This document shows, piece by piece, positions 14,480 to 62,602 of a DNA stretch of 64,000 nt. The DNA is taken from the NCBI GenBank assembly GCA_964621025.1, contig CAZUKQ010000001.1, positions 15,288-79,287 on the forward strand. Direction: 5' to 3'. Numbering within the stretch: the stretch's first letter is position 1; every line of letters begins with the position of its first letter. The translations under genes and the position numbers were made by a program. Source of the DNA: Candidatus Woesearchaeota archaeon. GTDB lineage: Archaea; Nanobdellota; Nanobdellia; Pacearchaeales; GW2011-AR1. The notes beneath the pieces are model-generated. The model had not been told where the DNA came from. It worked only from the letters and a program-made list of their open reading frames with translations, and ran no database searches.

Positions 14480-15943
14480 CTACTTCTCAACTTTCGTAAA
14501 CAAATGCTCACCCTTTTTGATTTCTACTGTTTCATCTAAATCTTTCTTAAATTCTTCTAAAGTGAATTCATAATTCCCGAAGTCTTTTGAAATCTTTTCA
14601 CAGGTTGATGGAATGAAAGGATGTAACAATATTGAGATTTTCTTTATAGCATTAGCCAACTCGTAAAGAACTTTCTTATCTTTTGTTTCCCAAGGTTTTT
14701 TCTCTGAGATGTATTCGTTGTTTTTGTCAACGAAAGAAAAAATTTCAGTTAGGGCTTTGTCAACTTCGTACTTTTCAAAATGTTCTTCTATTTTCTTTAC
14801 GTTCAAACTCTTGGAAAGTTTTCCGTCTGATTTTTCTAGACCATACTTTTCTGTCAAGGCTGAAACTCTGGAAACGAGATTTCCTAGTTTACTCATCAAT
14901 TCATTATTGTGTCTGTCAATTAGAGCAGCTTCTGAAAAGTCACCGTCGTTTCCTTCAGCAAATGCGAAACTTCTAGCCACATAATATCTAACTGAATCTG
15001 CTCCATATTTTTCTGCCAAGGTTATTGGAGAAATTGCGTTTCCTAATGACTTTGAAATCTTTTGTCCATTGAAACTTAAAAATCCATGAATAAAAACTGT
15101 TTCTGGCAATTTATAACCTGCTGATTTCAAAAATGCTGGCCAGTACACTGCATGGAACCATCCATTATCTTTTCCAAGAAGATGAACCGAAGCTGGCCAA
15201 TATTCTTGGTTCTTTCCAGCACCAGATAAATAGTTGAAAAGAGCATCGAACCAAACGTAAGTAATATGTTTTTTATCTAATGGAAATGGAATTCCCCAAT
15301 CAAAACTTGTTCTTGAAATTGATAAATCTTTCAAACCTTCTTTCACTCTATTTACCATTTCATTTTTTCTTTCCACTGGCAAAATAAAATTCTTTTGTTT
15401 GTACATTTCCAAAAGGAAATCTTGATATTTGCTTAATTTAAAAAAATAAGATTCTTCTTTTATTACTTCCAAAGGTCTATTGTGAAGAGGGCATTTGCCG
15501 TCGACTAAATCTTTTTCAGTGTAATAAGCTTCGCAACCCACACAGTACAATCCCTCATAAGTTCCTTTGTAAATATCGCCGTTATCAGAACATTTCTTTA
15601 TTACTTCTTGAACGAGTTTCTCATGGTCTTTGTCTGTTGTTCGGATAAATCGGTCATAATCAATATTCAATGCTTTCCAAGCAGTTTTAAATTTCTCAGC
15701 GTTTTCATCGACAAATTGTTTTGGTTTTTTACCTGCTTTTTCTGCAGTCTCTTGGATTTTCTTTCCGTGTTCATCTGTTCCCGTTAATAAAAAAACATCA
15801 TCTCCGATAAGCTTGTGCCATCTTGCGAGTATGTCTGCCACTACTTTTTGATAAGCGTGACCTATGTGTGGTTCTGCGTTTGGATAGTCTATTGCAGTTG
15901 TCACAAAGAACTTCTTCTGTTGTATTTTTGCTTTTTTTACCAT
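14480..15943 (-). CDS. metG: methionyl-tRNA synthetase (core only, no C-terminal domain)
   Basis: PHIGHAY (HIGH), KISKSLGN (KMSKS) and a CxxC...C zinc knuckle (CVGCEAYY..GKCPLH). Confidence 0.9.
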   Translation of the reverse strand: MVKKAKIQQKKFFVTTAIDYPNAEPHIGHAYQKVVADILARWHKLIGDDVFLLTGTDEHGKKIQETAEKAGKKPKQFVDENAEKFKTAWKALNIDYDRFIRTTDKDHEKLVQEVIKKCSDNGDIYKGTYEGLYCVGCEAYYTEKDLVDGKCPLHNRPLEVIKEESYFFKLSKYQDFLLEMYKQKNFILPVERKNEMVNRVKEGLKDLSISRTSFDWGIPFPLDKKHITYVWFDALFNYLSGAGKNQEYWPASVHLLGKDNGWFHAVYWPAFLKSAGYKLPETVFIHGFLSFNGQKISKSLGNAISPITLAEKYGADSVRYYVARSFAFAEGNDGDFSEAALIDRHNNELMSKLGNLVSRVSALTEKYGLEKSDGKLSKSLNVKKIEEHFEKYEVDKALTEIFSFVDKNNEYISEKKPWETKDKKVLYELANAIKKISILLHPFIPSTCEKISKDFGNYEFTLEEFKKDLDETVEIKKGEHLFTKVEK

Positions 15944-46462: not shown

Positions 46463-46879
46463 ATGGAAAAACCTCAACGTTATCTTTTTGTTTGTGCTGC
46501 TAATGTTAACCGAAGTAAAGTTGGTGAGACTGTTTTTAAAAGAATGCTTGAAGAAAAAGGTTACACTGTCGGAAGTTTAGACCAAGTTCTTGGAAGCGAT
46601 TGTTATGTTGGTTCTGCTGGAACTGATATTGATTTTATGGCCTTGAAAGAAGGTAGGCAGTACACTGCTGATCTTGGGACTGCAGTGGATAAAGTTTTCG
46701 CTGCAGATGCTAGAGTCTATATTGACCTTAAAGAATATTTTAGAATGTCTGAAGACAAAATGATAAACCTCGGAATTCCAGATAGATTTGACATTAAACT
46801 TCCAAACGAAAAAAGAAACCTTCAAAGAATTATGAGGAAGAAATTAGCTCCTTATGTTCCTGAAAAAAAGAAAGATTAA
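46463..46879 (+). CDS. LMW-PTP-fold phosphatase, Ssu72-like P-loop (paralog 1)
   Basis: YLFVCAANVNRSKVGE has the C-x5-R-S P-loop near the N-terminus. IPDRFD is a candidate acid loop. Confidence 0.7.
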   Translation: MEKPQRYLFVCAANVNRSKVGETVFKRMLEEKGYTVGSLDQVLGSDCYVGSAGTDIDFMALKEGRQYTADLGTAVDKVFAADARVYIDLKEYFRMSEDKMINLGIPDRFDIKLPNEKRNLQRIMRKKLAPYVPEKKKD

Positions 46880-46880
46880 T

Positions 46881-46946
46881 TTGTTACTGAATGGTGCGAT
46901 TTTTTGGATAAAAGTTTATAAGTTCTTTTTTACTATATTGTTTATG
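46881..46946 (+). repeat. 66-nt duplicated promoter module, copy A
   Basis: TTGTTACTGAATGGTGCGATTTTTTGGATAAAAGTTTATAAGTTCTTTTTTACTATATTGTTTATG. About 60 of 66 nt identical to 48137-48202. Contains TTTATAAG about 30 nt before the ATG. Confidence 0.7.
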
Positions 46947-47258
46947 ACAGAAGTTGCACCTCAAAACATTTCAGGAAATATTAAGTATCTTTCTTTTATG
47001 GATGCTAATGGAACTAGAAAAGTTGTCGAAGTTACTCATTTGGTAAACAATAAATGCTGTTACACCTTTAAAGAAGGAGAAGCAGAAAAACAATTCCGTG
47101 GAAAAATAGCTACAATAGAAAGTCGTGTTGATGAACCTAGCGTTAAAGTAAAATTGGCTAATCTTTTACAAGATACTGTAATCTTACCTGCTGAACTTTA
47201 CGGAATTCCTGGTTCTGATTTGAGAATAAGTTTGCCAACTCTAAGGTATATTGAATAA
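46944..47258 (+). CDS. hypothetical protein (104 aa)
   Basis: Start moved to ATG 46944 at the end of the duplicated promoter module. The upstream part of ORF-track 46854 is read-through of that module. Confidence 0.45.
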   Translation: MTEVAPQNISGNIKYLSFMDANGTRKVVEVTHLVNNKCCYTFKEGEAEKQFRGKIATIESRVDEPSVKVKLANLLQDTVILPAELYGIPGSDLRISLPTLRYIE

Positions 47259-47312: not shown

Positions 47313-47732
47313 ATGGGAAACCCAACAAGATATCTCTTTGTATGCATGGCGAACATAAATAGAAGTGTGACTGGGGAGAAAGTTTTTAAAGAGATACTGG
47401 AAGAAAGAAACTTTAAAGTTGGGTCCTTGGAGGAGAAAACCGGAAGTGATTTTTATGTCGGGTCTGCTGGAGTAAAGGTGGATGACTTGGAATTGGACGG
47501 AAGACAATACGAAGATGAACTTGGTGATTCGGTTGACCAGATATTCGCAGCAGATTGGCATGTTTCTTTGATACTTAGCGCAGATTATACAACTAAAATG
47601 AGTAAGATAACTGACTTGAAGATTGGGGATTTCTATGATATTAAAGTTCCTCTTGATGAGTTTGCTCTTCGAACTGTTCTGCATGAAAGATTGCAAAAAC
47701 ATGTTCCCGAAAGAAGACCGGAGGCAAAATGA
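47313..47732 (+). CDS. LMW-PTP-fold phosphatase, Ssu72-like P-loop (paralog 2)
   Basis: YLFVCMANINRSVTGE and IGDFYD. CTAAAAAT lies 28 nt upstream. Confidence 0.7.
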   Translation: MGNPTRYLFVCMANINRSVTGEKVFKEILEERNFKVGSLEEKTGSDFYVGSAGVKVDDLELDGRQYEDELGDSVDQIFAADWHVSLILSADYTTKMSKITDLKIGDFYDIKVPLDEFALRTVLHERLQKHVPERRPEAK

Positions 47733-48136
47733 AAAAGCCAACAAGGTACTTATTTGTTTGTAGATTTAATCAGAATAGAAGTAAGACTGGCGAGGCTGTT
47801 TTTAGAAAAATGTTGGAGGAAAAAGGTTTCAAAGTTGGAAGCTTAGAAGATAAAACGGGATATGACTACTATGCTGGTGCCGCAGGTATGGAATGCCAGA
47901 ATACTGAGCACTCTAAAAAATATACTCAAGAATTGGGAGACAGTGTAGATTTTGTTTTCGCTGCTGACAGACAGATTGATATGCAACTTGAACTTTATTT
48001 AACGGTTCCAAGAAAAAAATTAGCAAACCTTAGAATTCCGGATAATTATAACATTACCTATCCTGATGAGAAAGCAGAATTGGAAGAAATTCTTCGTGAT
48101 AAGTTGGAAGAGTATATGCCGAAAAGGAAAATTTGA
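47729..48136 (+). CDS. LMW-PTP-fold phosphatase, Ssu72-like P-loop (paralog 3)
   Basis: YLFVCRFNQNRSKTGE and IPDNYN. ATGA overlap with paralog 2. Confidence 0.7.
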   Translation: MKKPTRYLFVCRFNQNRSKTGEAVFRKMLEEKGFKVGSLEDKTGYDYYAGAAGMECQNTEHSKKYTQELGDSVDFVFAADRQIDMQLELYLTVPRKKLANLRIPDNYNITYPDEKAELEEILRDKLEEYMPKRKI

Positions 48137-48202
48137 TTGTTACTAGAAGGTGCGATTTTTTGGATAAAAGTTTATAAGTTCTTTTTTACTAGATTATTTA
48201 TG
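48137..48202 (+). repeat. 66-nt duplicated promoter module, copy B
   Basis: TTGTTACTAGAAGGTGCGATTTTTTGGATAAAAGTTTATAAGTTCTTTTTTACTAGATTATTTATG. Confidence 0.7.
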
Positions 48203-48490
48203 GGAAAGGACTTGACCGTTTTGACAAACAGAGAGATTAGAAATCTCGGAATAGACTTGGAAGACGAAGACAAATTTGAAAAATTGGACTCCAATGATGC
48301 ATATATCTCATTTTGTTTAGGGGAAGGCCCTACTAGAATGGATGCTAGACGAGCTGCAAGAAAAGTTGCTAGAAAGTTTTTACGTAAAGGAACAGACCTA
48401 ATGGTTGTTTCTTTGGACTATTCAATGACTGTTGGAGCTTGGACAAGTGCTAATTACAAGGTTGACCAGTATAAAATGCGACTTGCATAA
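48200..48490 (+). CDS. hypothetical protein (96 aa)
   Basis: Start moved to ATG 48200 at the end of promoter module copy B. Confidence 0.45.
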   Translation: MGKDLTVLTNREIRNLGIDLEDEDKFEKLDSNDAYISFCLGEGPTRMDARRAARKVARKFLRKGTDLMVVSLDYSMTVGAWTSANYKVDQYKMRLA

Positions 48491-48867: not shown

Positions 48868-48875
48868 TTATAAAT
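48868..48875 (+). promoter_or_regulatory. TATA box (TTATAAAT), starts 28 nt upstream of ATG 48896
   Basis: Fits the -28 TATA rule. Confidence 0.55.
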
Positions 48876-48895: not shown

Positions 48896-50260
48896 ATGGT
48901 TGAAAAAGAATATACTTTTTTGGAGGCAACAACTTCTCTTTGTAATGTTTGCGAAAAAAGAATAGATGCGAAAATAATTGAAAAGAATAAATCGGTTTAT
49001 ATTTTAAAAAATTGTTTAGAACACGGCGAACAAATTGAATTATTGGAAGAGGATGCCGTTTATCACAGAAGAAAAATTCAGTATGACAAACCGGGAAACA
49101 AAATAAGGCCTGAAACTGCTGTGAAGAAGAGTTGTCCATTTGATTGTGGTCTTTGTTCTGCGCATGAACAACATACCTGTAATGCTCTAATCGATGTGAC
49201 TGATAAATGTGATTTGTGTTGCCCAATGTGCTACGCTTCTAGCGGAAAGGGGAAACATTTAGAGTTAAAAAAAATTGAAGAGATGATGGATTTTTTCCAG
49301 AAAAAAGAAGATGGAAAGGCTGAAATTTTGCAAATCAGCGGCGGAGAACCAACAACTCACCCAGAAATTATAAAAATACTTGAAATTGCAAAGAAAAAGA
49401 AATTTAGATATATAATGTTAAACACAAATGGATTGAAAATCGCTAGCGATGAAAATTTTGTTAAAGAACTTTCTAAGTTTAAAGGAAGATTTGAAATTTA
49501 TCTGCAGTTTGATGGTTTTAAAGATTCTACTTATAGATTCCTTAGAGGAAGAGAAGATTTATTGAAAACTAAAATGAAAGCAATTGAAAATTTGCAAAAA
49601 TATAAAATTCCAATAACTCTTGTTGCGACTATACAAAGGGGAATAAACGAAGATGAAATTGGAAAAATCTTTGAGTTTGCTGTTAACACGCGAGGAATAA
49701 GGGGAATAAATTTTCAGCCGGTTGCTTTTTTTGGAAGAACAAATAAATTTGATACCAAAGATAGAATTACACTTTCTGGAATTGTGAATAGACTTGAACA
49801 ACAAACTAAGGGAATGGTTAAGCGAACAGACATAATTCCTCTGCCTTGTAATGTTAATCGTGTTGGTGTGAGTTATTTTTACAAAGACGCGAAGGGATTT
49901 TTTCCCTTGACGAGAAATTTGAATGTTAGTTCTTACTTGCCTTTAATCGATAACACTTTTGCATTTGATGCAGATAAAATTTTAGAAGATAAAACAAAGG
50001 CTATTGGTTGTTGTAGCTGTTTTACAAAGTTTTTTAATGATTTTAGTAAATTAATTCCAAAGGATTACAAAAAATTCTCCAATGAAGAGAAGATGAACTG
50101 GTGGGATGAACATTCTTTTAGAGTTAGTATTGTTTCCTTTGTTGACAAATACAATTTTGATATGAAATCTATGAAAAAAGAATGCGTACATTTCGTAACT
50201 CCTGATATGAAAAGAATTCCTTTTTCTTCGTATAATATGTTTTACAGAAAGGCGATTTAG
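48896..50260 (+). CDS. radical SAM enzyme with N-terminal Cys-rich segment and extra CPFDCGLC cluster motif (possibly tetraether-lipid-synthase/MJ0619-like clade)
   Basis: CNVCEKR...NCLEHG, CPFDCGLCSAHEQHTC, the radical SAM motif CDLCCPMC (C-x3-C-x2-C), ISGGEPT, and a ~200-aa C-terminal extension with CC.C. Confidence 0.8.
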   Translation: MVEKEYTFLEATTSLCNVCEKRIDAKIIEKNKSVYILKNCLEHGEQIELLEEDAVYHRRKIQYDKPGNKIRPETAVKKSCPFDCGLCSAHEQHTCNALIDVTDKCDLCCPMCYASSGKGKHLELKKIEEMMDFFQKKEDGKAEILQISGGEPTTHPEIIKILEIAKKKKFRYIMLNTNGLKIASDENFVKELSKFKGRFEIYLQFDGFKDSTYRFLRGREDLLKTKMKAIENLQKYKIPITLVATIQRGINEDEIGKIFEFAVNTRGIRGINFQPVAFFGRTNKFDTKDRITLSGIVNRLEQQTKGMVKRTDIIPLPCNVNRVGVSYFYKDAKGFFPLTRNLNVSSYLPLIDNTFAFDADKILEDKTKAIGCCSCFTKFFNDFSKLIPKDYKKFSNEEKMNWWDEHSFRVSIVSFVDKYNFDMKSMKKECVHFVTPDMKRIPFSSYNMFYRKAI

Positions 50261-50294: not shown

Positions 50295-50504
50295 ATGGAA
50301 GCAAAGAAGGTGATTTTAATTCTATTGACAATTTTTATAGTTGGTCCTTTGGTTTTTATTGGTACTTGTTTTCCATTAGGTCTTTTTAGTTTTGGCATGT
50401 ACTCTAACTATAATACCTTTGTTGTGACCTTTGTCTATGCTTTGTCAATAACCTTCGCAATTTGGGTAGTTATTGCAATGTCTAAAAGGATTGCTAGAAA
50501 ATAA
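50295..50504 (+). CDS. small 2-TM membrane protein (paralog A)
   Basis: KKVILILLTIFIVGPLVFIGTCFPL parallels 51087-51323. ATATAAAC lies 28 nt upstream. Confidence 0.5.
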   Translation: MEAKKVILILLTIFIVGPLVFIGTCFPLGLFSFGMYSNYNTFVVTFVYALSITFAIWVVIAMSKRIARK

Positions 50505-50505
50505 G

Positions 50506-51093
50506 ATGAATATTCTTCTAATCAATTCCATTATAACAAGCATTGCGTTTGTAGTTATTGTTCTCGCTGTTTTAATTGATTTCATTGAAAATCATGCTGG
50601 AAGAAAGGCGGAGAAAGAAAAGAAGAGCTGGGTTGAAACTGGGACAATGTTTGTTTTTTTCTTTTTGTTTTATTTTGTAATCAGATTTAAAGTAGGAATT
50701 GTTAGTGTTCCATTGAACTCTTTAGCAATTTTTGAGATTTATCTTTGCTGGTTTGTAATTTTTCTTGGAACTTGGTTTAATGTTGCAGGAAGAATTACTC
50801 TCGGAAAAAACTGGGCGAACCAAATAAAAATTTACAAGAATCATACTTTGAAAAAAGAAGGAGTTTATTCTATTGTTAGACATCCACTTTATGCATCCTT
50901 GATTTGGATTTTTTACGCTTGTTCTATTATTTATTTTAATGTTGCTGCATTTTTCCTTAACACATTAGTTTTTGTGCCAATGATGTACTATCGAGCAAAA
51001 CAAGAAGAAAAATTCTTATCGGAACAATTTAAAAACTATAAAGACTATCAGAAAGAGGTAGGAATGTTTATTCCAAAATTTAAAATATGGTAG
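50506..51093 (+). CDS. ICMT/PEMT-family membrane methyltransferase
   Basis: Polytopic protein with GVYSIVRHPLYASLIW (the RHPxY signature). Start at ATG 50506, 1 nt after the upstream stop. Confidence 0.7.
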   Translation: MNILLINSIITSIAFVVIVLAVLIDFIENHAGRKAEKEKKSWVETGTMFVFFFLFYFVIRFKVGIVSVPLNSLAIFEIYLCWFVIFLGTWFNVAGRITLGKNWANQIKIYKNHTLKKEGVYSIVRHPLYASLIWIFYACSIIYFNVAAFFLNTLVFVPMMYYRAKQEEKFLSEQFKNYKDYQKEVGMFIPKFKIW

Positions 51094-51323
51094 ACACTAG
51101 GGAAATTAAAGAAAAATTAAGTATGAAGAAAGTTGTGTTAATGACTTTAACTGGTTTATTTATTGGTCCTTTGGTTTTTTTTGGTAGTTGTGTTCCTCTT
51201 CTGGGTTTTTCAGAGAGCTTTGGAGATAAATATGTAATCTTCTATTTTTTTAGTTTTATATTATCTGTAGTTCTTACCGGCCTAGTATGTTATTTTATTA
51301 TAAAAAGGATTCTTAAAAAATGA
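51087..51323 (+). CDS. small 2-TM membrane protein (paralog B)
   Basis: KKVVLMTLTGLFIGPLVFFGSCVPL parallels 50295-50504. Confidence 0.5.
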   Translation: MVDTREIKEKLSMKKVVLMTLTGLFIGPLVFFGSCVPLLGFSESFGDKYVIFYFFSFILSVVLTGLVCYFIIKRILKK

Positions 51324-51778
51324 AACAACAAATAGCAAAAGTCAAAAGCGCGGAATTTTTTTTCTGCCGAATCGGAGTGATGCTTTTAGTTTGGGCTGCA
51401 CTTATCTTTAGAAGTAAAGACTTAGTTCTATTAAGTTTTGTAATTCTTCTACTCTCCGCGATTTTCACAGTTAGATATGCGCCGATGATTTTAATTTGGA
51501 GATACACCTTAGGTATTTTCTTTAATTCGAATGATGAACTATTGAATGTTAAAGCAATGAGATTTGCACATTCTCTTGGAACTGTTCTTGCTGGAATTTG
51601 TTTGTTGTTCTTATATTTCGGGAATCAAACCGTTGGATGGGGCTTCGTTGCTTTTTTCGCAATAATGAAAACAATTTCTGCTTTTGGTTTCTGTCCGGCT
51701 TCTAAAGTTTATGTCTGCATGTCAAATGGAACTTGCTGTGCTTTTTCTAGAAAAATGAAAAAAATGAGAGAGAAATAA
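51320..51778 (+). CDS. membrane protein, DUF4395-like
   Basis: 4 TM segments and a C-terminal GFCPASKVYVCM...CC motif. Family assigned from memory. Confidence 0.45.
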   Translation: MKQQIAKVKSAEFFFCRIGVMLLVWAALIFRSKDLVLLSFVILLLSAIFTVRYAPMILIWRYTLGIFFNSNDELLNVKAMRFAHSLGTVLAGICLLFLYFGNQTVGWGFVAFFAIMKTISAFGFCPASKVYVCMSNGTCCAFSRKMKKMREK

Positions 51779-51779
51779 A

Positions 51780-52547
51780 ATGTTCGACTTTCACACCGTT
51801 CCTGTTTCTGACTGGGGAGTTTTACCTGTTTTGTTTAAAGTTGGAGATATTCCCATTTCTTCCTATTCTTTCTTCATGTTGTTGGCGATTGTCTTGGGTA
51901 GTTTAGTCTATTGGCTTGAGGCGAGAAAACAAAAGATGGCTAATGAGAATAGTTTTTACATTATTATTGCTGCTTTGATTGGTGGTGCTATTGGTGCGAA
52001 ACTCCTGATAGTTATTTACTATTGGAATCAGATTGTTGCTAGCTTTCCTGACTTGACTATTCTGCTTTCTGGTCGGTCTATTCTTGGCGGTTTGGTAGGA
52101 GGGTTTCTGGGAGTGTTATTAGTTAAAAAGAAATTGAAGATACAAGGGAGAAGAGGAAATTTGTTTGTCCCTGCGATTGCGCTCGGTGTAGCTATTGGAA
52201 GAATTGGCTGTTTCTTGGCTGGATGTTGCTTTGGTGATCCTACGAGTTTGCCATGGGGCGTTGATTTTGGTGACGGAATTTTAAGACATCCTACACAGCT
52301 GTATGAATCTCTGTTTATGCTTGGCGTGTTCTTCTATTCTAAATGGAAGTTGAAAGATAAGAAGCTTAAGCCGGGACAGTTGTTTAATCAGTTCATAATA
52401 ATCTATTTTGTTTGGAGATTCCTTGTTAGTTTCATTAGGGCTGAACCTTCTGTTCTTTTTGGACTTGACTTCTTCCAGTGGTTTTCTCTAGGTGCAATTA
52501 TATTGTTTTGGATTAGGGGAAGAAAATTTAGGAAACAGAATAAATAA
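51780..52547 (+). CDS. lgt: prolipoprotein diacylglyceryl transferase (bacterial-type Lgt)
   Basis: GRIGCFLAGCCFGDPTSLPWGV and RHPTQLYESL are Lgt signatures. Polytopic, ~255 aa. Confidence 0.8.
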   Translation: MFDFHTVPVSDWGVLPVLFKVGDIPISSYSFFMLLAIVLGSLVYWLEARKQKMANENSFYIIIAALIGGAIGAKLLIVIYYWNQIVASFPDLTILLSGRSILGGLVGGFLGVLLVKKKLKIQGRRGNLFVPAIALGVAIGRIGCFLAGCCFGDPTSLPWGVDFGDGILRHPTQLYESLFMLGVFFYSKWKLKDKKLKPGQLFNQFIIIYFVWRFLVSFIRAEPSVLFGLDFFQWFSLGAIILFWIRGRKFRKQNK

Positions 52548-61488: not shown

Positions 61489-61549
61489 TTTCTTATATAA
61501 ATTTTTTTAATTTTTTTAATAAGCATAAAGAGGGGTGATAAAAACCAAG

Positions 61550-62602
61550 ATGATAAACAAATTCAACGCAGTTTGGTTAGCAGTCACCTACGACTGTCAA
61601 AATAAATGTAAATGGTGTTATGCCTCTTCAAATATGGAGGCTTACCGAGGTAGAAATTTACCTCAAGAAAAAATTGCTCCCACTCTAGATTTATTGAAAG
61701 AACTCGGAGTATCTAGAACTACATTAATTGGAGGTGAACCAACTATTTATAAATTTCTCCCTACACTTTTAGAAGAACATCAAAAAAGAGGGATAAAGGC
61801 CGGATTGGTCACAAATGGAAGAAGATTAAAAGACAAAGAATTTTCTGGCATGATAAAAAAATTAGGAATAGAAAGTCTGACCGTTTCTATAGAAGGATAT
61901 GATTCAAAATCTCAAGACAGTTTAACACAATCACCCGGAAGTTATGAACAAGCTATGGAAGGAATTTACGTTGCTAGTTCTAAAGGAATTAATGTTAGTA
62001 CAAATACTGTAATCAGTAAATCTAGTGTAGACAATCTTGAAAAAATAGTAGACTCTTTAATAGATACTCCTGTAAAATCTCTTTCATTTAATGTTTGTGG
62101 ACCTTGTTTAACGAGTGAAGATAATCCTGAAATTATTAACCCTTCATTAGCTGCTAAAAGATTTGAAGAAATTTACAAATATACTAAGGCAAAAGGAAAG
62201 GTTGCTCGGCTTGTTACCCCCATTCCTTTATGTTTTTTTGAGGAAGAAATAAGAACTGAACTAGCTTCTCAAAAATTGATTTATGGTGGTCCTTGTCAAT
62301 TGGCTCATGGACATAATTTTGTTATTGATTACAATGGAGATTTAATTCCTTGTACACATATGTCTGGTTTTCCAATGGAAAATATTTTTACCAAAGAAGG
62401 GGTTTTATCTTCTGAGAAATTTATTGAGAGATATAATTCTCCTAAAGGAATTCCATTTCAGTTTAGACAGAAATTAAATAGGACTGCATCTGAAAAGTGT
62501 GATTCTCCTAATTGTAATCAGCCATGTTCTGGCGGTTGTCCTTTAATTTGGAAAGGATTCGATCCAGATAAAGAAATAAGGGGTGTCTCCAAACTTTTAT
62601 AA
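61550..62602 (+). CDS. radical SAM enzyme with C-terminal SPASM-like domain (peptide maturase candidate)
   Basis: CQNKCKWC (C-x3-C-x2-C), LIGGEPT, C-terminal GDLIPC (G-x4-C) and CDSPNCNQPCSGGC. Start at ATG 61550, with GGGGTGAT 10 nt upstream. The ORF track uses GTG 61535. Confidence 0.85.
   Translation: MINKFNAVWLAVTYDCQNKCKWCYASSNMEAYRGRNLPQEKIAPTLDLLKELGVSRTTLIGGEPTIYKFLPTLLEEHQKRGIKAGLVTNGRRLKDKEFSGMIKKLGIESLTVSIEGYDSKSQDSLTQSPGSYEQAMEGIYVASSKGINVSTNTVISKSSVDNLEKIVDSLIDTPVKSLSFNVCGPCLTSEDNPEIINPSLAAKRFEEIYKYTKAKGKVARLVTPIPLCFFEEEIRTELASQKLIYGGPCQLAHGHNFVIDYNGDLIPCTHMSGFPMENIFTKEGVLSSEKFIERYNSPKGIPFQFRQKLNRTASEKCDSPNCNQPCSGGCPLIWKGFDPDKEIRGVSKLL

Follow-up and report, generated by a model that had tools for sequence, protein, structure and literature searches.

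The window considered here, a 64,000-nucleotide stretch (positions 15,288 to 79,287 of contig CAZUKQ010000001.1, assembly GCA_964621025.1) from a Candidatus Woesearchaeota archaeon, carries on its forward strand a gene for an enzyme of the radical SAM (S-adenosylmethionine) type, followed by five co-directional genes for membrane proteins. The enzyme has the fold of GDGT-MAS, also known as Tes, the synthase of glycerol dialkyl glycerol tetraethers (GDGTs). As judged from sequence, it lies inside the Tes/TrsS/HMPTM superfamily but outside the Tes clade, in a separate branch that is linked to genes of the Lgt (prolipoprotein diacylglyceryl transferase) family. It is most likely an enzyme in a horizontally spread protein/lipid-tailoring cassette and not a bulk archaeol-to-GDGT synthase. 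The features of the enzyme itself are, by position in the window:

48896 to 50260, forward strand: radical SAM enzyme with GDGT-MAS/Tes fold, 454 amino acids (aa), ATG start (open reading frame, Pfam, tree, and model)
48917 to 49045, forward strand: N-terminal rubredoxin-like zinc ribbon, residues 8-50 with C16, C19, C40, and H43 (PF23545, E 1.5e-15)
49133 to 49180, forward strand: predicted N-terminal auxiliary [4Fe-4S] motif CPFDCGLCSAHEQHTC, with C80, C84, C87, and H90 and also H93 and C95 (match to [Fe4S4]N of GDGT-MAS)
49208 to 49231, forward strand: radical SAM cluster motif CDLCCPMC, C105-x3-C109-x2-C112 (PF04055, E 9.7e-23)
49763 to 50257, forward strand: C-terminal domain, residues ~290-454, with invariant C318, C373, and C430 and also H432 (conservation and alignment with GDGT-MAS)

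The spacing of the zinc ribbon (C16-x2-C19-x20-C40-x2-H43) equals that of the rubredoxin motif of GDGT-MAS (C9X2C12X20C33X2H36), and C80-x3-C84-x2-C87 together with H90 matches the [Fe4S4]N site of the same enzyme (C73, C77, C80, and a His). These four residues align with CPYDCGLCPNH of MJ0619 and are invariant in the clade to which the window enzyme belongs (hereafter the query clade). The radical SAM domain scores 81.6 bits against PF04055 (cut-off 29.5), and C105, C109, and C112 are invariant across the whole family. Among 120 homologues, variation is absent or almost absent at Cys 16, 19, 40, 80, 84, 87, 95, 105, 109, 112, 318, 373, and 430 as well as at His 43, 90, 93, and 432, cysteines 108, 372, and 375 being the exceptions; because of this near-invariance, the cysteines of all these motifs do not reflect chance. 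The region C-terminal to the radical SAM core spans ~165 aa and contains Cys318, Cys372/373/375, and Cys430; it probably binds a third, site-differentiated cluster through a ligand set unlike that of Tes. The original prediction had pointed to a CxxC...CxxH segment at the N terminus, a second cluster-like motif directly before the canonical radical SAM motif, and a C-terminal extension of ~200 aa with extra cysteines, and all of these are present.

The sole closely similar solved structure is that of GDGT-MAS/MJ0619 (7TOL, phmmer E 1.6e-72), which is matched in two stretches, residues 11-319 and 404-453. An AlphaFold2 model built with 28 homologues reached a mean predicted local distance difference test score (pLDDT) of 88.5 and a predicted TM score (pTM) of 0.90. 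In Foldseek comparisons, this model matched 7TOM with a TM score of 0.83 and 7TOL with 0.81, at 31% identity over ~495-502 alignment columns, with SkfB as the runner-up at 0.40. The core of the model aligns with many radical SAM structures, and its C-terminal domain superposes on the C-terminal domain of GDGT-MAS. As modeled, the enzyme therefore has the full four-domain GDGT-MAS architecture in a full-length match. It shares with GDGT-MAS/Tes (MJ0619, MA_1486, and Maeo_0574; NF045702) the identical rubredoxin-like motif, the CxxxCxxC cluster site with its His, the radical SAM motif, and a C-terminal domain with three conserved cysteines, and is ~50 residues shorter. Because of this fold, the enzyme most likely acts on a substrate with a hydrocarbon chain, which it would bind and activate by hydrogen abstraction at the chain end. 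GDGT-MAS itself binds phosphatidylglycerol-type lipids and forms an intermediate in which the substrate carbon is bonded to a cluster sulfur (PMC9433317).

A legacy annotation gives such proteins as 7,8-dihydro-6-hydroxymethylpterin dimethyltransferase (HMPTM), by which the window enzyme would be a cofactor methylase; several homologues are so named by JGI, and the Pfam zinc-ribbon family bears the HMPTM name. This function is extremely improbable. Lloyd et al., whose work showed MJ0619 to be GDGT-MAS, could not confirm a pterin-methylase activity of this protein (PMC9433317), the neighbors of the window gene all encode membrane proteins, and the carriers of the cassette include non-methanogenic bacteria. 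As it is effectively refuted for the founding member of the family, MJ0619, the annotation was rejected.

For the placement of the enzyme within the superfamily, an exhaustive HMMER search of 1.84 billion representative sequences yielded 2418 relatives at E <= 1e-10. Neighbor-joining (NJ) trees were calculated on MAFFT alignments of 128 representatives, and a 170-taxon version includes the sequences derived from the loci described below. Against the NCBIfam model of Tes (NF045702), the window enzyme scores 313 bits versus a cut-off of 450, with its best stretch at residues 12-320. Its top match is the model of TrsS (NF045646), with 353.8 bits versus a cut-off of 490 (residues 11-448 on profile positions 2-431 of 441), which is slightly better and also falls short. 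When 30 tree representatives were scored against NCBIfam, the Tes cut-off was passed by P0216, P0246, and P0241 (481-566 bits), which fall in one clade, and the TrsS cut-off by P0197, P0207, and P0239 (545-671 bits), in a clade neighboring Tes; the query clade and many other branches pass neither. Of 200 bootstrap replicates calculated with 62 taxa, 99.5% contained the query clade, 99% the Tes clade, and 86.5% the TrsS clade. The query clade and its sister clade, here called group B, were split from every Tes and TrsS sequence in 200/200 replicates. The suggestion that the enzyme belongs to a Tes/GDGT-MAS/MJ0619-like clade thus holds for superfamily and fold (TM 0.83) and fails for the Tes clade, both by profile score and by phylogeny.

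The C-terminal domain differs accordingly between the clades. The alignment column of Met439 of GDGT-MAS holds Met in 15/17 Tes and 30/30 TrsS sequences and T, S, A, or V in the query clade, and the 'PFC' position, a Cys in 17/17 Tes and 97% of TrsS sequences, is an invariant Ser (Ser444) in the query clade. The two other C-terminal cysteines of Tes/TrsS, at the HxxC and CC/CxI positions, probably have their counterparts in C318 and C430, displaced by 1-4 alignment residues. A complete loss of the three Tes cysteines, which had been considered, was accordingly rejected in part. C373 is specific to the Lgt-linked clades. The window enzyme shows the query-clade pattern of C318/C373/C430 with Glu429 and Ser444; compared with GDGT-MAS/Tes it is thus without the equivalent of Met439, has Ser for the 'PFC' Cys, and conserves another third cysteine. 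TrsS, a radical SAM (seleno)protein reportedly described by Haft and Tolstoy in 2025, is known here through its NCBIfam model and one locus. It resembles the window enzyme in its length of ~450 aa and in Cys95, but true TrsS proteins form another clade beside Tes and retain the Tes-type Met and Cys set. The query branch is a separate and ancient branch of the superfamily.

More than 100 clusters of homologues, each of ~455 aa, are 54-77% identical to the window enzyme. Their source names include Candidatus Falkowbacteria, 'uncultured bacterium ACD' from the candidate phyla radiation (CPR), Ruminiclostridium, Lutisporaceae, Chlorobaculum, Chlorobiales, Pacearchaeota, and 'archaeon'. The query clade is found mostly in bacteria, CPR, and DPANN and not in GDGT-producing archaea. 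In the 170-taxon tree, archaeal and bacterial sequences are interspersed, which points to horizontal transfer. Besides the cassette, the window has genes for TBP, MCM, RNase PH subunits of the exosome, and GatB/E; its G+C content is ~33%, and its 64 kb contain no tRNA gene and no Rfam family above the gathering score. The closest homologues of the cassette genes are labeled Pacearchaeota, Woesearchaeota, or 'archaeon', and a DPANN-type archaeon is the sensible assignment for the window. Clostridia, Chlorobi, and CPR bacteria, none of which has archaeol, possess orthologues with 54-60% identity together with the same cassette. Since bacteria without archaeol carry such closely related enzymes, archaeol is disfavored as the defining substrate.

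These data bear on the idea that a lipid-scavenging DPANN archaeon possesses a functional tetraether or macrocyclic-archaeol synthase, with which it couples the phytanyl termini of host-derived archaeol. The fold and the three N-terminal and core metal sites are as in GDGT-MAS, the three invariant C-terminal cysteines could hold a site-differentiated cluster, the host is archaeal, and such DPANN proteins were counted among the Tes homologues by Zeng et al. (PMC8941075). We nevertheless regard this function as unlikely. The exclusion of the enzyme from the Tes clade is strongly supported, its score is below the curated cut-off, it lacks the Met and the 'PFC' Cys invariant in Tes/TrsS, its close bacterial orthologues have no archaeol to act on, and it has no link to isoprenoid-lipid genes, unlike true Tes. 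Even in the Tes clade, GDGT formation is not universal, as MA_1114 gave mere traces of macrocyclic archaeol (PMC8941075). Conversion of diethers to GDGTs by this DPANN archaeon, as the original prediction envisaged, is therefore unsupported by homology.

The genes that accompany the enzyme argue for a different role. The six genes are separated by gaps of -32 to +34 nucleotides (nt), and the five membrane-protein genes, among them two for small membrane proteins of a family here called SM1, follow a promoter-like element and the radical SAM gene in this order:

48868 to 48875, forward strand: TATA-box-like TTATAAAT, ~25 nt upstream of the ATG of the radical SAM gene (read from the sequence)
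50295 to 50504, forward strand: SM1a, a membrane protein of 69 aa whose conserved motif LTIFIVGPLVFIGTC-FP contains a lipobox-like Cys, a candidate substrate or carrier
50473 to 51093, forward strand, probable true start at ATG 50506: integral-membrane methyltransferase of the ICMT/PEMT family (PF04140, PF04191)
51087 to 51323, forward strand: SM1b, 78 aa, paralogous to SM1a and carrying LFIGPLVFFGSC-VP as its motif (sequence comparison)
51320 to 51778, forward strand: DUF4395 membrane protein with five conserved cysteines (PF14340, E 5.6e-14)
51780 to 52547, forward strand: Lgt-like transferase of a distinct subfamily, with GRIGCFLAGCC (PF01790, E 8.8e-42)

TTATAAAT is a putative archaeal promoter of the cassette, and the arrangement is consistent with the radical SAM gene heading an operon of membrane-protein genes, as had been proposed from the sequence. 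Outside the window, loci were collected by scanning genome contigs with the single protein, which returned only the Ruminiclostridium locus (L001), and by a far richer alignment-based scan of metagenomes. The order radical SAM, ICMT, DUF4395, Lgt recurs in Ruminiclostridium, on a 3.7-Mb contig of Lutisporaceae (L002), and in Pacearchaeota (L004), Falkowbacteria (L007), Chlorobaculum (L008), and the closest archaeal metagenome-assembled genome (L009). It is likewise found in every metagenome locus of at least 41% identity with enough downstream DNA (L010-L026, L038). An adjacent Lgt-family gene with a Cys in place of N146 is present in the window and in 19/19 loci of the query clade with enough flanking DNA. 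In one locus (L019, 7364-8437), the ICMT-like reading frame is of unusual length (357 aa), and a separate gene for DUF4395 was not detected between it and the Lgt-like gene; this may represent an ICMT-DUF4395 fusion or a divergent DUF4395.

In group B, which is bacterial (many members from soil) and 37-41% identical to the window enzyme, an Lgt-family gene lies directly upstream of the radical SAM gene in ~40/62 loci, and ICMT and DUF4395 were not found in the group B loci. The same Lgt-radical SAM pair occurs in the clade of P0165; the locus of the sister lineage P0153 (L090) and some others are too short to show the gene context. Elsewhere in the superfamily the neighbors are different. The one TrsS locus examined (L006) has a UbiE-type methyltransferase, a C_GCAxxG_C_C protein, and an AMP-binding enzyme, the clade of P0157 (L092) has DsbD_TM and a CMAS/UbiE-type methyltransferase, and the clade of P0176 (L093) has a B12-radical SAM enzyme. 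The true Tes P0241 is located among ribosomal-protein genes and AcnX, and MA_1486 adjoins genes for ferredoxin and GGR (PMC8941075). Genes for Lgt, ICMT, DUF4395, and small Cys proteins are absent beside one true Tes and one TrsS locus, and for the query clade no association with isoprenoid-lipid genes was observed. GDGT-MAS/Tes genes thus reside near isoprenoid-lipid or housekeeping genes, whereas the window gene resides with those for the Lgt-like, ICMT-like, DUF4395, and small Cys proteins. Because the other branches have different neighbors, the Lgt linkage is specific to the branch that contains the query clade. As a side observation, P0157, P0176, and TrsS each have their own conserved-looking partners, and the superfamily appears functionally more diverse than the term 'Tes homologue' implies. 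A description of the present cassette was not found in the literature searched, and its multi-gene context is apparently undescribed.

The Lgt-like protein of the window belongs to a distinct subfamily. It scores 93.3 bits against TIGR00544 (cut-off 118.9) and 132.9 bits against NF000778 (cut-off 334), and its match to E. coli Lgt (5AZB) is weak (4.5e-09). With residues numbered by what we take to be the E. coli sequence, checked against the 5AZB alignment segments, it retains Y26, R143, G154, Y235, and R239. Across 19 query-clade and 46 group B proteins, R143, G154, Y235, R239, and an HP..YE motif are kept, N146 is replaced by Cys in 65/65 linked genes, and H103 is not kept (L/V). In the query clade, E151C and L152C are found in addition, giving 'GRIGCF..GCC'. 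Among the 120 closest database homologues of the window protein, N146C is present in 120/120 and the CC pair in 117; many members of this subfamily come from Pacearchaeota, Woesearchaeota, and Patescibacteria. Mutational work on E. coli Lgt is reported to have found N146 and H103 important. By its scores and by these two positions, the neighbor at 51780-52547 does not qualify as a canonical prolipoprotein diacylglyceryl transferase. The window nevertheless represents an Lgt-family gene in an archaeal fragment, despite the statement in a 2025 study of archaeal lipoproteins, in which lipidation is credited to AliA/AliB and not to Lgt, that archaeal Lgt homologues are unidentified (PMC12462473).

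The methyltransferase matches PF04140 (8e-12, 45.9 bits versus a cut-off of 24) and PF04191 (PEMT, 9e-10) and remains below the NF040696 equivalog cut-off (72.5 bits versus 160). Its best PDB match is 4A2N, the isoprenylcysteine carboxyl methyltransferase (ICMT) of M. acetivorans (5e-11), and it has a weak match to the thiol methyltransferase MddA (4.9e-08). The DUF4395 protein carries its cysteines as C16, G-x-C125-P-A-x-K-x-Y-x-C132, and C139-C140.

The small membrane proteins are characterized by a cysteine in a recurrent context. Of SM1, the archaeal type, the window has two copies, L009 has a single one, and L004 has a tandem array of six; in this family, a short basic N-terminal segment is followed by the motif L-T-I-F-I-V-G-P-L-V-F-[VIF]-G-[STA]-C-[FIV]-P. 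A second family, SM2, is encoded 3' of the Lgt gene in bacterial loci and also in L009, L010, and L038; it has the motifs D-F-x-x-G-F and R-R-Y-I-x-x-G and, near the C terminus, [FLI]-G-[AGT]-C, after which just 4-13 residues remain. Either SM1 or SM2, with [FLIV]-G-[AST]-C, was found in 16/18 query-clade loci having downstream DNA. In group B, a small hydrophobic reading frame with a similar Cys context starts at the stop codon of the radical SAM gene in at least 22/56 loci, versus 0.4 expected from the background rate of such reading frames in the same loci. In its surroundings, the Cys is similar to that of the bacterial lipobox [LVI][ASTVI][GAS]C, and no Pfam family matched the small proteins. 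Among the group B reading frames, those from low-GC loci end in a C-terminal G-x-C with a short tail, mirroring SM2, and those from high-GC loci have an N-terminal 'SGLC'-type lipobox, mirroring SM1. Besides these, a third small membrane family (SM3, ~126-138 aa) with the motif YFFxGxxIxxIIQ..F..GG and no cysteine was observed beside the cassette in four archaeal-type loci; it is absent from the window:

L004, 11625 to 12041: SM3
L010, 9668 to 10057: SM3
L026, 2848 to 3228: SM3
L038, 7394 to 7798: SM3

The tandem and variable copy number of the small-protein genes (two in the window, six in L004) could suggest that the radical SAM enzyme acts directly on SM1/SM2 as a maturase like those of RiPPs (peptides made by the ribosome and modified after translation), introducing, for example, side-chain cross-links, with the Lgt-like and ICMT-like enzymes as tailoring enzymes. 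The next-best structural matches of the model, the peptide maturases SkfB and SuiB, would fit such a role, but these matches span only the generic radical SAM core (TM ~0.4). The enzyme has no SPASM/twitch domain or RiPP recognition element, its C-terminal domain is the lipid-binding domain of GDGT-MAS, and the small proteins are full transmembrane proteins and not leader-core peptides. We therefore consider direct peptide maturation very unlikely.

With a conserved core of an Lgt-like protein, a radical SAM enzyme of GDGT-MAS fold, and a small protein with a lipobox-like Cys, a role in protein lipidation is the most economical reading. We hold with moderate confidence that the window enzyme is a lipid-tail radical enzyme in a dedicated protein-lipidation pathway, in which it works with the Lgt-like enzyme and the small proteins. 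Parallels exist on two sides. As in the bacterial lipoprotein pathway, there is an Lgt-family protein keeping R143 and R239 and a [FLIV]-G-[AST]-C motif similar to a lipobox; as in the CaaX processing of eukaryotes (prenylation, proteolysis, and methylation by ICMT), there is an ICMT-family methyltransferase, and SM2, with its Cys 4-13 residues from the C terminus, resembles a CaaX-type tail. The cassette differs from both in that its Lgt-like protein stays below the lgt cut-offs and has N146C (with E151C and L152C), that it encodes no Lsp, Lnt, or CaaX protease, and that it includes a radical SAM enzyme, which neither pathway has.

From linkage and fold, we infer the following substrate, order of steps, and chemistry. 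With a donor of phosphatidylglycerol type, the Lgt-like enzyme would transfer a diacyl- or dialkyl-glyceryl lipid to the conserved Cys in SM1a and SM1b. The radical SAM enzyme would then bind the hydrocarbon tail in its hydrophobic C-terminal pocket, its 5'-deoxyadenosyl radical would take a hydrogen from the chain end, and a new C-C or C-S bond would be made with the aid of the re-wired C-terminal [4Fe-4S] cluster. The ICMT-like enzyme would methylate a carboxylate or thiol exposed on the product, and DUF4395 may supply thiols or electrons. Both C-C cross-linking and C-S chemistry are plausible because GDGT-MAS uses phosphoglycerol lipids and proceeds through a C-S(cluster) intermediate, and either would be compatible with the re-wired cluster. 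Taken further, the cassette could constitute a prokaryotic protein-lipidation pathway shared by horizontal gene transfer among anaerobic bacteria, CPR, and DPANN, in which an Lgt-like enzyme with an active-site Cys S-lipidates the lipobox-like Cys of the SM proteins, an ICMT-type enzyme methylates as in CaaX processing, and the radical SAM enzyme cross-links or thiolates tail ends to give macrocyclic or membrane-spanning conjugates. In this complete form the proposal is tentative and rather doubtful.

Several points weigh against the assignment to protein lipidation and the evidence on which it draws. Instead of being substrates, the small proteins could have a structural role as subunits. Without N146 and H103, the Lgt-like enzyme may perform no diacylglycerol transfer at all, and no protease is encoded in the cassette, which leaves the target of an ICMT-type carboxyl methylation unclear. 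The ligands of the third cluster are uncertain, as residues ~340-400 align poorly and are modeled with a pLDDT of 66-83. Finally, the trees are NJ and not maximum-likelihood trees, and the experimentally characterized Tes proteins enter through the NCBIfam scores and the PDB comparison only and not through the tree set.

Instead of a protein-bound lipid, the radical SAM enzyme might couple or cyclize the tails of free bulk phospholipids, bacterial or archaeal (e.g., phosphatidylglycerol), with the Lgt-like enzyme using or supplying the products and the small proteins as accessories. The donor of Lgt is phosphatidylglycerol. As isolated from E. coli, GDGT-MAS contains bacterial phospholipids, and the head group on its substrate is phosphoglycerol (PMC9433317); furthermore, bacterial Tes homologues have been proposed as synthases of branched GDGTs (brGDGTs) or other membrane-spanning lipids (PMC8941075 and later surveys). 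Known producers of diabolic and iso-diabolic acid, however, are mostly without Tes homologues and use Mss (PMC13159169), and the strict co-occurrence with small Cys proteins, an ICMT-like enzyme, and DUF4395 would be left unexplained, so that we judge a bulk-lipid function to be a minor, though serious, possibility.

Sulfur insertion would be a further departure: cluster sulfide would be moved to a lipid or peptide carbon and the thiol methylated by the ICMT/MddA-family enzyme, or the Cys of an SM protein would capture the carbon radical and form a thioether. The bond between substrate carbon and cluster sulfur in GDGT-MAS (PMC9433317) is a precedent, the C-terminal cluster is re-wired and without the protecting Met, the methyltransferase family includes MddA, and conserved cysteines are plentiful in the Lgt-like, DUF4395, and SM proteins. 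This chemistry seems improbable to us, as the argument is purely one of mechanistic analogy, no sulfur-mobilization genes occur in the cassette, and the methyltransferase is nearest to isoprenylcysteine carboxyl methyltransferases and not to MddA.

The placement of the enzyme outside the Tes clade has consequences for the use of Tes homologues as markers. Zeng et al. reported in 2022 'Tes homologs' in DPANN metagenome-assembled genomes and in 456 bacterial genomes and left their function open (PMC8941075), and such homologues, called by BLAST at e < 1e-50 and >20-30% identity, serve as a genomic marker for GDGT/brGDGT producers in work on palaeoclimate proxies (PMC8941075 and later surveys). 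The window enzyme and its clade would pass these thresholds against GDGT-MAS (1.6e-72, 31% identity). Because their branch is separate and linked to Lgt, differs in the environment of the C-terminal cluster, and has a conserved gene context that is not one of lipid biosynthesis, reading query-clade proteins in DPANN, CPR, or soil bacteria as tetraether synthases is probably wrong. The window enzyme should not be annotated as Tes, nor should it be taken as evidence of GDGT production in this organism. The query branch is a distinct, widely distributed, Lgt-linked part of the tetraether-synthase superfamily, and its partner set (an Lgt-like protein with a Cys at the active site, an ICMT-like enzyme, DUF4395, and small lipobox proteins) offers a concrete system in which a new reaction of the GDGT-MAS fold can be tested and which bears on the use of Tes homologues as biomarkers. 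If the cassette does constitute the complete lipidation pathway outlined above, many of the 'bacterial and DPANN Tes homologues' from which GDGT/brGDGT producers are inferred would serve another job, and Lgt-family enzymes would also operate in archaea. The occurrence of the cassette in CPR and DPANN, both lineages with small genomes and a supposed dependence on the lipids of their hosts, invites the speculation that it has a role in handling acquired membranes. A further system to be set apart is Mss (Sahonero-Canavesi et al. 2022), which is also a radical SAM enzyme, forms tail-to-tail C-C bonds in lipids of anaerobic bacteria, and has reported homologues in DPANN Woesearchaeia. By its description, Mss belongs to another family, remote from Tes (PMC13159169), and has no reported linkage to Lgt, ICMT, or DUF4395.

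Upstream of the cassette, an 81-nt direct repeat (46866-46946 and 48122-48202, 88% identity) with TTTATAA inside it and ATG at its end probably arose by duplication of a promoter and the 5' end of a gene. In that case, the reading frames 46854-47258 and 48137-48490 would be more likely to start at 46944 and 48200, respectively. Three paralogous genes of ~135-139 aa lie just before the cassette (46463-46879, 47313-47732, and 47729-48136); they resemble low-molecular-weight phosphotyrosine phosphatase/ArsC (motif YLFVCxxNxNRS), the third with a weak match to PF01451. A second, unrelated radical SAM gene is located in the window at 61535-62602 and encodes 355 aa with matches to PF04055 (7.8e-21) and Fer4_12.

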